Shown: positions 59,833 through 62,800 of the stretch, in pieces
Layout: each line of letters starts with the position of its first letter
Position numbering within the stretch: the first letter of the stretch is position 1
DNA from: Escherichia coli 042
GTDB taxonomy: Bacteria > Pseudomonadota > Gammaproteobacteria > Enterobacterales > Enterobacteriaceae
Reading direction: 5' to 3' (one strand)
NCBI RefSeq assembly: GCF_000027125.1
Contig: NC_017626.1
DNA length: 64,000 nt
Position numbers: made by a program

Positions 59833-62800
59833 TGGTACGCGAGCTGGGTTTAGAACGTCGTGAGACAGTTCGGTCCCTATCTGCCGTGGGCGCTGGAGAA
59901 CTGAGGGGGGCTGCTCCTAGTACGAGAGGACCGGAGTGGACGCATCACTGGTGTTCGGGTTGTCATGCCAATGGCACTGCCCGGTAGCTAAATGCGGAAG
60001 AGATAAGTGCTGAAAGCATCTAAGCACGAAACTTGCCCCGAGATGAGTTCTCCCTGACCCTTTAAGGGTCCTGAAGGAACGTTGAAGACGACGACGTTGA
60101 TAGGCCGGGTGTGTAAGCGCAGCGATGCGTTGAGCTAACCGGTACTAATGAACCGTGAGGCTTAACCTTACAACGCCGAAGCTGTTTTGGCGGATTGAGA
60201 GAAGATTTTCAGCCTGATACAGATTAAATCAGAACGCAGAAGCGGTCTGATAAAACAGAATTTGCCTGGCGGCCTTAGCGCGGTGGTCCCACCTGACCCC
60301 ATGCCGAACTCAGAAGTGAAACGCCGTAGCGCCGATGGTAGTGTGGGGTCTCCCCATGCGAGAGTAGGGAACTGCCAGGCATCAAATTAAGCAGTTAGCC
60401 GGTCATAAAACCGGTGGTTGTAAAAGAATTCGGTGGAGCGGTAGTTCAGTCGGTTAGAATACCTGCCTGTCACGCAGGGGGTCGCGGGTTCGAGTCCCGT
60501 CCGTTCCGCCACCCTAATTAGGGGCGTAGTTCAATTGGTAGAGCACCGGTCTCCAAAACCGGGTGTTGGGAGTTCGAGTCTCTCCGCCCCTGCCAGAAAT
60601 CATCCTTAGCGAAAGCTAAGGATTTTTTTTATCTGAAATAACCTCTCCGAAGTAAATCCTTCTACCGGCATCCTTGCCAGCCATTCAGATTAATACACTT
60701 CATCCAGCACGTTAATTTTCAATAGATCGCGAATCAACGCATTTTTATCGCTATTTTGCAGCCATATGGCATAAAGCGGCCGTGAAAGTGTTGTGCTATC
60801 GACAACGGTATGCAGGCCGCCCTTTTTACGCGCCCAACTGACGGGTAGCCAGGTGCAACCATTAAGCGTCGCAATCTGTTGCTGTGCCAGTTCAGCAGAA
60901 CTGGTTGTCAGAATGGGAACTTCGTCAGCACCGATCAAACCTGCCTCATGCTGTTGAAAATCTGGCCCCCATTCCAGTCGCAGATAGTTAAGATCTCCCT
61001 TTAGTTTGGAAGGGGCACTGGTATAAAGCGCTAAAGTGAAATACCCGAGCAACTGACTGCTAAATTCGTCCATTTTGGGCGCTTCAGTAGTAATAAGAAG
61101 ATCAAGCTGGCGTTCATGCAGCTGTTTTACCAGAGACTGCCGTTGGGCAATTCGCGCTTCGAACTGTAAGCCTGTATGGGCATCCTGATTTTTATACAAG
61201 CGTCCCAGCCACTGATTAAGCATACATTCCCACAACGAGGCGCTGGCACCGATAGAAAACTCGTTATGTCGTGAGGTATGCGCCACCTCCTTACGGGCGG
61301 CCTGCCAGGTGCTCATGAGCGTTTCTGCATAAGGCAGTAGTTTTTCACCAGCAGCGGTTAAACGGATATTGTTTCTGTGGCGGGTGAAAAGATTCACACC
61401 CAGTTGATTTTCCAGTTGTCTGATTCGAAAGCTCACTGCTGACTGGGTCAGATAGAGCGATTCAGCCGCTCGACCAAAGTGACGCGTTCGGCTAACTTCC
61501 AGGAAAGTTTTTAACAATTCCGTATCCACAGTGCTCTCCGCAAAATTATTTGTCGTTATGATTTAAATGTTTTGTTTTACACTCTGTCAAGCGTAACTAA
61601 TACTCCGCGCCATAACTAGCTCGGTCAAAGAATTAGGAGCGTGCAGGATGGCGGAAAGCTTTACGACGACTAATCGATATTTCGACAATAAACATTATCC
61701 ACGTGGATTCTCTCGTCATGGTGACTTCACCATCAAAGAGGCACAACTGCTTGAGCGTCATGGTTATGCCTTCAATGAGTTGGATCTTGGCAAACGCGAG
61801 CCGGTTACCGAGGAAGAGAAACTCTTCGTAGCAGTATGCCGTGGCGAACGTGAGCCAGTGACAGAAGCAGAACGCGTGTGGTCCAAGTATATGACGCGTA
61901 TCAAGCGTCCAAAACGTTTTCACACCCTTTCCGGCGGCAAACCGCAGGTTGAAGGTGCTGAAGACTACACCGATTCTGACGATTAATAAAAAGGGCGAAA
62001 TGCCCTTTTTTTTATGTCAGTAGTTTTTGCAGATGGATGAGCAAACGGTCAATCGCACGATAGCTAACTGCCTCCTGCAAATGCTGACGTGTGATAATGT
62101 CAGACTGATCAATATCAGCAATTGTTCGTGCAACTTTCAATAACCGCTGCCAGGCACGAATCGATAACCCCAGATGGATCAGCGTTTCTTCCAGCCACTG
62201 CGCATCTTCGCTCTCAAGCTTGCAGAATTGGCGTATTTCCGGACTATCCAGCCAGGCGTTCAACTTATTCTGCCGCTTAAATTGGCGCTCTCTGGCGGCC
62301 ATTACACGTTGTTTAACGGTGGTGCTGCTTTCTCCCGGCACTACCGTTTTACTCAAAATGCCGGGGGGCGGTAATGGGATCTCCAGTGAGAGATCGAAGC
62401 GGTCGAGAAAGGGCCCCGAGAGCCGGTTGAGATAACGTAATGTCTGTTCTGGTGTGCAGCGGTTATGGTTTCCCTGATAATGTCCGGTAGGGCTGGGATT
62501 CATCGCCGCGACAAGCTGGAAACGGGCTGGATAGGTTATTTTTGCTCGTGTGCGTGAAAGATGGATCTGCCCGGATTCAATCGGCTCTCGCAAGGCATCC
62601 AGTGTACGCCGTTCAAATTCAGGTAGCTCATCAAGAAAAAGCACGCCGTTATGCGCCAGCGAAATTTCACCTGGCCCTGGAATTGCACCACCGCCCACCA
62701 TCGCAGTTAACGACGCACTGTGATGAGGTGAGCGGAACGGGCGCTGCCGCCATTGTTTTTGTACTGATTCAGCATTTACCAGACTTAATATCGCAGCGCT

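Follow-up and report, generated by a model that had tools for sequence, protein, structure and literature searches.

Is the 17-nucleotide sequence CTAATACTCCGCGCCAT of Escherichia coli 042 the maoS site of the Ori macrodomain, and which functions does this stretch of DNA carry? In the original description, maoS is a 17-nt motif located in the 118-bp hdfR-yifE intergenic region (Valens, Thiel, Boccard 2016, PLoS Genet 12:e1006309, PMC5023128). It acts only in cis, in both directions and over hundreds of kb, on the chromosome or on excised rings, while maoP (yifE) acts in trans. Together, maoS and MaoP limit the mobility of the DNA and keep Ori apart from the Right macrodomain. In addition, deletion of hdfR increases the constraint and deletion of yifB has no effect (PMC5023128). 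We analysed a stretch of 64,000 nucleotides of the 042 genome (contig NC_017626.1), hereafter named the window. An earlier note, made from the sequence alone, had proposed that the 17-mer at positions 61597–61613 between hdfR and maoP is maoS.

When both strands of the window are searched with up to two mismatches tolerated, CTAATACTCCGCGCCAT occurs once. This sole match is exact, lies on the plus strand and is identical, letter for letter, to the motif of Valens 2016 (PMC5023128). A published motif differing from the 17-mer would have spoken against the proposal; there is no such difference, because the window sequence is identical to the motif. The 17-mer also corresponds to positions 3948035–3948051 of K-12 (MG1655, NC_000913.3, taken as K-12 reference). 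Judged by sequence comparison, its identification as maoS is near certain.

The sequence search and the open reading frames also bear out the placement of the site in the divergent hdfR-maoP intergenic region (61530–61647). As suggested in the earlier note, this region was compared with its K-12 counterpart (3947968–3948085). It has the length of 118 bp given in Valens 2016, and 118/118 positions are identical. Within it, 67 bp separate maoS from the hdfR start codon, and 34 bp separate it from the maoP ATG downstream. On one side, the hdfR ORF (60690–61529, minus strand) encodes the divergent LysR-type regulator of 279 aa, with Pfam HTH_1 and LysR_substrate domains. On the other side, the maoP ORF (61648–61986, plus strand) encodes the trans-acting partner, a 112-aa protein of the DUF413 family (Pfam, E 2.4e-38). 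A terminator scan placed a terminator-like hairpin after maoP (61988–62010, plus strand), followed by yifB, a 516-aa ORF of the Mg-chelatase/ComM family (Pfam; 62012–63562) that is convergent with maoP. MaoP is identical to K-12 MG1655 NP_418213.1 at 112/112 residues, with three silent nucleotide differences in the gene, and HdfR carries two substitutions, Q113K and M221T. Hence, 042 and K-12 share the 17-mer, the 118-bp intergenic region, the MaoP protein, the divergent hdfR, the convergent yifB and the distance to oriC. Nothing differs at the locus itself, and the two HdfR substitutions as well as the 98.7% identity of the surrounding DNA correspond to ordinary strain divergence. The earlier note also spoke of an intact Ori macrodomain locus. 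This stands for both genetic determinants, maoS and maoP, which are intact; the macrodomain itself is a cellular phenotype, beyond sequence. Given the identity with the K-12 locus, maoS of 042 would act in cis and depend on MaoP, constraining DNA mobility and isolating Ori from the Right macrodomain.

The arrangement of the surrounding chromosome was then compared with that of K-12. Window positions 25399–64000 align with K-12 3911837–3950437 as a single collinear BLAST segment of 38.6 kb, with 98.7% identity and nine gap openings. This block contains glmS, glmU, the atp operon, rsmG, mnmG, oriC, mioC, asnC, asnA, viaA, ravA, kup, the rbs operon, hsrA, yieP, rrnC, aspT, trpT, hdfR, maoP, yifB and ilvL. 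The first 40 bases of K-12 oriC, as annotated in NC_000913.3, are found at 39304, which places oriC at 39304–39535 on the plus strand, the end assuming the 232-bp K-12 length. The distance between oriC and maoS is about 22.06 kb both in the window and in K-12, and, at the scale of the window, maoS is a single site near the origin. The single collinear block and the unchanged distance confirm the view that no rearrangement has affected the backbone on this side of oriC. Since the origin-proximal arrangement is standard and the determinants are intact, the resistance island found in the first 25 kb of the window has left the maoS locus undisturbed.

The island itself (window 1–25398) shows no collinearity with K-12 and constitutes a mosaic of multidrug resistance. 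In other strains, this mosaic is frequently carried by plasmids; in 042, it is part of the chromosome and is separated from maoS by oriC, which is about 13.9 kb away from it. The best matches of the mosaic carry IS1, catA1, the Tn21-family TnAs3 transposase/resolvase, a class 1 integron (intI1, cassettes, qacEdelta1, sul1), IS1326, tniB/tniA, a mer operon and tet(A)/tetR. Homology with K-12 ends exactly at the stop codon of glmS (25401–27230, minus strand). At the island edge (24400–25400), IS1 is located about 190 bp downstream of this stop codon; IS1 is found beside glmS in such a manner in 4 of 5426 complete E. coli genomes. A Tn7 right end, searched for at the glmS junction with up to three mismatches allowed, was not found. 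The island adjoining glmS is unrelated to the maoS finding.

Within the species, the locus is almost constant. A 401-bp query over the locus gave matches of at least 99% identity in 5425 of 5426 complete E. coli genomes, where hdfR and maoP are annotated (RefSeq). In these matching genomes, no feature is annotated at maoS itself. Taking 41 nt with maoS at the centre, 5421 of the 5425 genomes have the identical sequence and four differ by one mismatch; the median copy number per genome is one. The hdfR-maoP spacer gave no match in one of the 5426 genomes, and two copies are present in a few genomes, one of them on a plasmid. In the laboratory strain K-12 HMS174 (NZ_LM993812.1, about 3642217–3642570, equivalent to window 61400–61753), the match ends at 61753 inside maoP and is found at two places in the record, which suggests that maoP is interrupted or duplicated.

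Beyond the species, a scan for the exact 17-mer with one genome per species returned at least 120 loci. Among the 120 matches listed, 119 belong to Enterobacterales and represent 119 species of many genera, with the 17-mer between hdfR and maoP. These genera include Escherichia, Citrobacter, Klebsiella, Enterobacter, Pantoea, Erwinia, Dickeya, Pectobacterium, Serratia, Yersinia and Rahnella, as well as Hafnia, Edwardsiella, Budvicia, Proteus, Providencia, Morganella, Photorhabdus, Xenorhabdus, Arsenophonus and Sodalis-like symbionts. The lone exception among the matches listed is a Rhizobium contig (L118) having neither maoP nor hdfR nearby, a chance match as expected at about 298 Gb. Because the loci were picked by exact match, the invariance of the 17-mer in this sample is by construction; what is informative is the taxonomic breadth, the constant position and the unselected flanks. 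In the loci whose retrieved DNA reached the neighbouring gene, the 17-mer of the matches listed lies 63–68 bp from the divergent hdfR start and 33–43 bp before the maoP start. This position is fixed among them despite homologue identities down to 52% for HdfR and 68% for MaoP.

The flanks were examined in 105 distinct Enterobacterales sequences. Upstream of maoS, the 22-bp block GATTTAAATGTTTTGTTTTACA (61560–61581, plus strand) is near-invariant, with a major-base fraction of about 1.00 at most positions. This block played no part in locus selection and lies outside the published 17-nt maoS; it includes a -35-like hexamer and the region that Reg-Seq gives to PhoP (see below). The 15 bp between the block and maoS are less conserved (0.5–0.95). 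For comparison, the major-base fraction averages 0.56 at the fourfold-degenerate sites of invariant maoP residues, calculated from the same loci. The near-invariance of unselected flanks against this value of 0.56 shows that the whole spacer, beyond maoS, is strongly constrained. Two other patterns were rejected. A TAACTA direct repeat (61594–61599 and 61613–61618) that flanks and overlaps maoS was judged fortuitous, because its variable positions are not conserved across species (0.51–0.88). The inverted repeats of the spacer have arms of 6 nt only and were attributed to chance.

What function could constrain the spacer in addition to maoS? Valens 2016 stated that the intergenic region presumably holds the yifE promoter, with nothing further on this promoter (PMC5023128). 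On the maoP strand, our scan identified one sigma-70-like site, TTTACA-17 bp-AATACT, with a 9/12 match, which is weak alone as 0.7 such sites are expected in shuffles. The -35-like hexamer TTTACA of this putative maoP promoter (61576–61581, plus strand) has a conservation of 0.89–1.00 in the 105 Enterobacterales sequences, and the -10-like hexamer AATACT (61599–61604, plus strand) is inside maoS. From promoter geometry, the 3' part of maoS (61605–61613, plus strand) would correspond to a GC-rich discriminator-like CCGCGCC followed by a probable start region, AT.

The maoP promoter was mutagenised in the Reg-Seq study (Ireland et al. 2020, eLife 9:e55308, PMC7567609), in which position 0 is K-12 3948058. 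This reference is a RACE transcription start (Reg-Seq supplementary files 1 and 11) and corresponds to window 61620 on the plus strand. The smoothed information footprints for maoP peak at -43 to -39 and at -22 to -18, with a maximum at -20 (PMC7567609). After coordinate conversion, this maximum falls on the second base of the -10 hexamer, at window 61600. In our reading of the published data, the two peaks fall on the -35 and -10 hexamers, and mutations there alter expression. All three data columns for maoP show, at -16 to -11 (window 61604–61609), a signal whose sign is the reverse of that at the -35/-10 peaks. In addition, the RNAP index of maoP is 94, compared with 103–104 for most genes (PMC7567609), which we read as RNA polymerase positioned about 10 bp upstream of the reference start. 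Reg-Seq mentions two RACE starts for maoP, one at 61620, which is 16 nt past the -10 hexamer, and another upstream of it (PMC7567609). A start used by the putative promoter would be predicted about 7 nt past this hexamer. Taking these data together, we read maoS as comprising the -10 hexamer, the discriminator and the probable start (about 61611–61612) of the maoP promoter.

Reg-Seq also assigned regulators to this promoter: HdfR as an activator at -100 to -55, PhoP as an activator at -55 to -35 and GlpR as a repressor at -25 to -11 (PMC7567609). In the same coordinates, maoS extends from -23 to -7 and overlaps the proposed GlpR site by 13 nt. In our reading, the two descriptions concern the same DNA, maoS covering the inferred -10 element and the assigned GlpR region; the Reg-Seq annotation differs in making no mention of maoS. 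As a separate observation, the HdfR site through which Reg-Seq has HdfR activating maoP corresponds to window 61520–61565, and in Valens 2016 Ori markers are more constrained upon hdfR deletion. On a simple reading, these two results point in opposite directions.

How, then, should the 17-mer be interpreted? That it merely resembles a remembered motif by chance can be dismissed. The Rhizobium match shows that unrelated exact matches do occur among some 298 Gb of genomes. However, the number of occurrences expected for any particular 17-mer in 64 kb, counting both strands, is about 7.5e-6, and the match of CTAATACTCCGCGCCAT is therefore not due to chance; 100 dinucleotide-preserving shuffles of the window gave 0 matches. 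Moreover, the flanking context is identical to that of K-12, and all but one of the 120 matches listed across genomes sit in the hdfR-maoP spacer. It is this sequence context that excludes chance. A different possibility, which we consider unlikely but worth weighing, is that the 17-mer is primarily the maoP core promoter. Its conservation would then reflect promoter function, and the macrodomain effect would arise via RNA polymerase or the open complex, possibly with MaoP, rather than via a dedicated operator. The hexamer pair found by the scan with its -10 element within maoS, the Reg-Seq peaks on both hexamers with the maximum at the second -10 base, and the upstream placement of RNA polymerase all argue for it. 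So does the promoter-like succession of a conserved -35 block, a looser spacer and then the 17-mer, the latter invariant by construction. On the other hand, the consensus match is modest, at a level for which shuffles also yield sites. In addition, the bare 17 nt placed at an ectopic locus, with maoP in trans and without the -35 block, still constrain a neighbouring marker (Valens 2016, PMC5023128), although a bare -10/discriminator is not expected to be active as a promoter. This ectopic activity of the bare 17-mer weakens a purely promoter-based reading.

The overlap with the assigned repressor site raises another interpretation, in which maoS would be the operator of a conventional transcription factor, GlpR (-25 to -11, window 61595–61609), and the phenotype would depend on GlpR and not on MaoP binding. 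We regard it as very improbable. The repressor site of Ireland et al. 2020 does cover 13 of the 17 maoS bases, and the glpR knockout was reported to remove the signature (PMC7567609). The footprint at -16 to -11, of sign opposite to the RNA polymerase elements, goes in the same direction, but the opposite-sign signal at -15 to -12 persists, reduced, in the glpR-knockout column. The 17-mer also bears no known resemblance to the classical glp operator, and none of the papers retrieved in our literature search ties glpR to macrodomain phenotypes. Genetics make maoP the trans-acting requirement (Valens 2016, PMC5023128). Because maoP is genetically required and a footprint remains in the glpR knockout, the GlpR-operator reading is weakened.

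The best explanation, of which we are all but sure, is that the 17-mer is maoS, the cis site that gives Ori macrodomain behaviour with the adjacent MaoP; its mechanism we infer. Most likely, maoS would serve as a nucleation site at which the chromosome is engaged by MaoP, either by itself or together with another factor. From there, a process would spread or track along the DNA; tracking or loop extrusion from maoS was proposed by the authors of Valens 2016 (PMC5023128). That study contains no ChIP, EMSA or purified-protein experiment, and evidence of direct MaoP binding to maoS was not found in the literature examined. Among the publications since 2018 that our search retrieved, most concerned unrelated acronyms and none was a mechanistic paper on MaoP. 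As the same 17 bp form the -10 element, the discriminator and the probable start, maoS is probably bifunctional. It would also be the core of maoP's own promoter, and the action of MaoP there may couple to maoP expression.

The MaoP protein, encoded at 61648–61983, was examined for features related to DNA binding. Pfam recognises DUF413 only, and no DNA-binding domain. A PDB sequence search gave no relative with a solved structure (best E 0.03). An AlphaFold2 model calculated from a 28-orthologue alignment has a mean pLDDT of 67 and is confident only for a three-helix core (residues ~29–86). Comparison of this model with the PDB by Foldseek gave no significant match (best E 3.7). Hence, neither structure nor sequence matches in the PDB provide a structural clue to DNA binding by MaoP. 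The most conserved parts of the protein, an N-terminal YPRGFSRHG...FTI and a C-terminal motif with an acidic tail after it, have low confidence in the model, and the confidently modelled three-helix core is less conserved. Judging from the model, these invariant N- and C-terminal motifs may serve in interactions and become folded only once bound to a partner.

In its layout, the maoS/MaoP pair recalls two other site-protein systems. parS, the site of ParB, likewise acts in cis near the origin and adjoins the gene encoding its trans-acting protein, and one or a few such sites exert long-range effects. However, MaoP (112 aa, DUF413) has no ParB-type domain and no ParA partner; the likeness would be a functional analogy only. 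matS, the site of MatP in the Ter macrodomain, is a 13-bp palindrome. As in the case of maoS and MaoP, a short specific DNA site and a small dedicated protein, belonging to the Dam-associated enterobacterial gene set, jointly organise a macrodomain. In contrast to the single, non-palindromic maoS, matS is present in 23 copies over 800 kb and is bound directly by MatP (Valens 2016, PMC5023128; Duigou and Boccard 2017).

Overall, maoS in 042 is an already known element, in its normal place on a standard E. coli backbone. As a landmark, it indicates that the glmS-oriC-rrnC-ilvL backbone follows the standard E. coli order, with both known Ori macrodomain determinants intact. The order-wide survey extends the nine-species alignment of Valens 2016 (S2 Fig, PMC5023128). 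Together with the overlap between maoS and the core promoter, the conservation of the spacer across the order designates concrete mutations to test; these are small extensions of published work. Finally, we put forward, as a speculation that is probably wrong, that maoS is the melting segment (-10, discriminator and start) of the maoP promoter and not a free-standing operator, in an hdfR-maoP spacer frozen as a whole across Enterobacterales. If this were true, the cis function of Ori could act via RNA polymerase or a MaoP-polymerase complex, or MaoP could recognise maoS as melted or single-stranded DNA, and MaoP autoregulation would be coupled to chromosome organisation.
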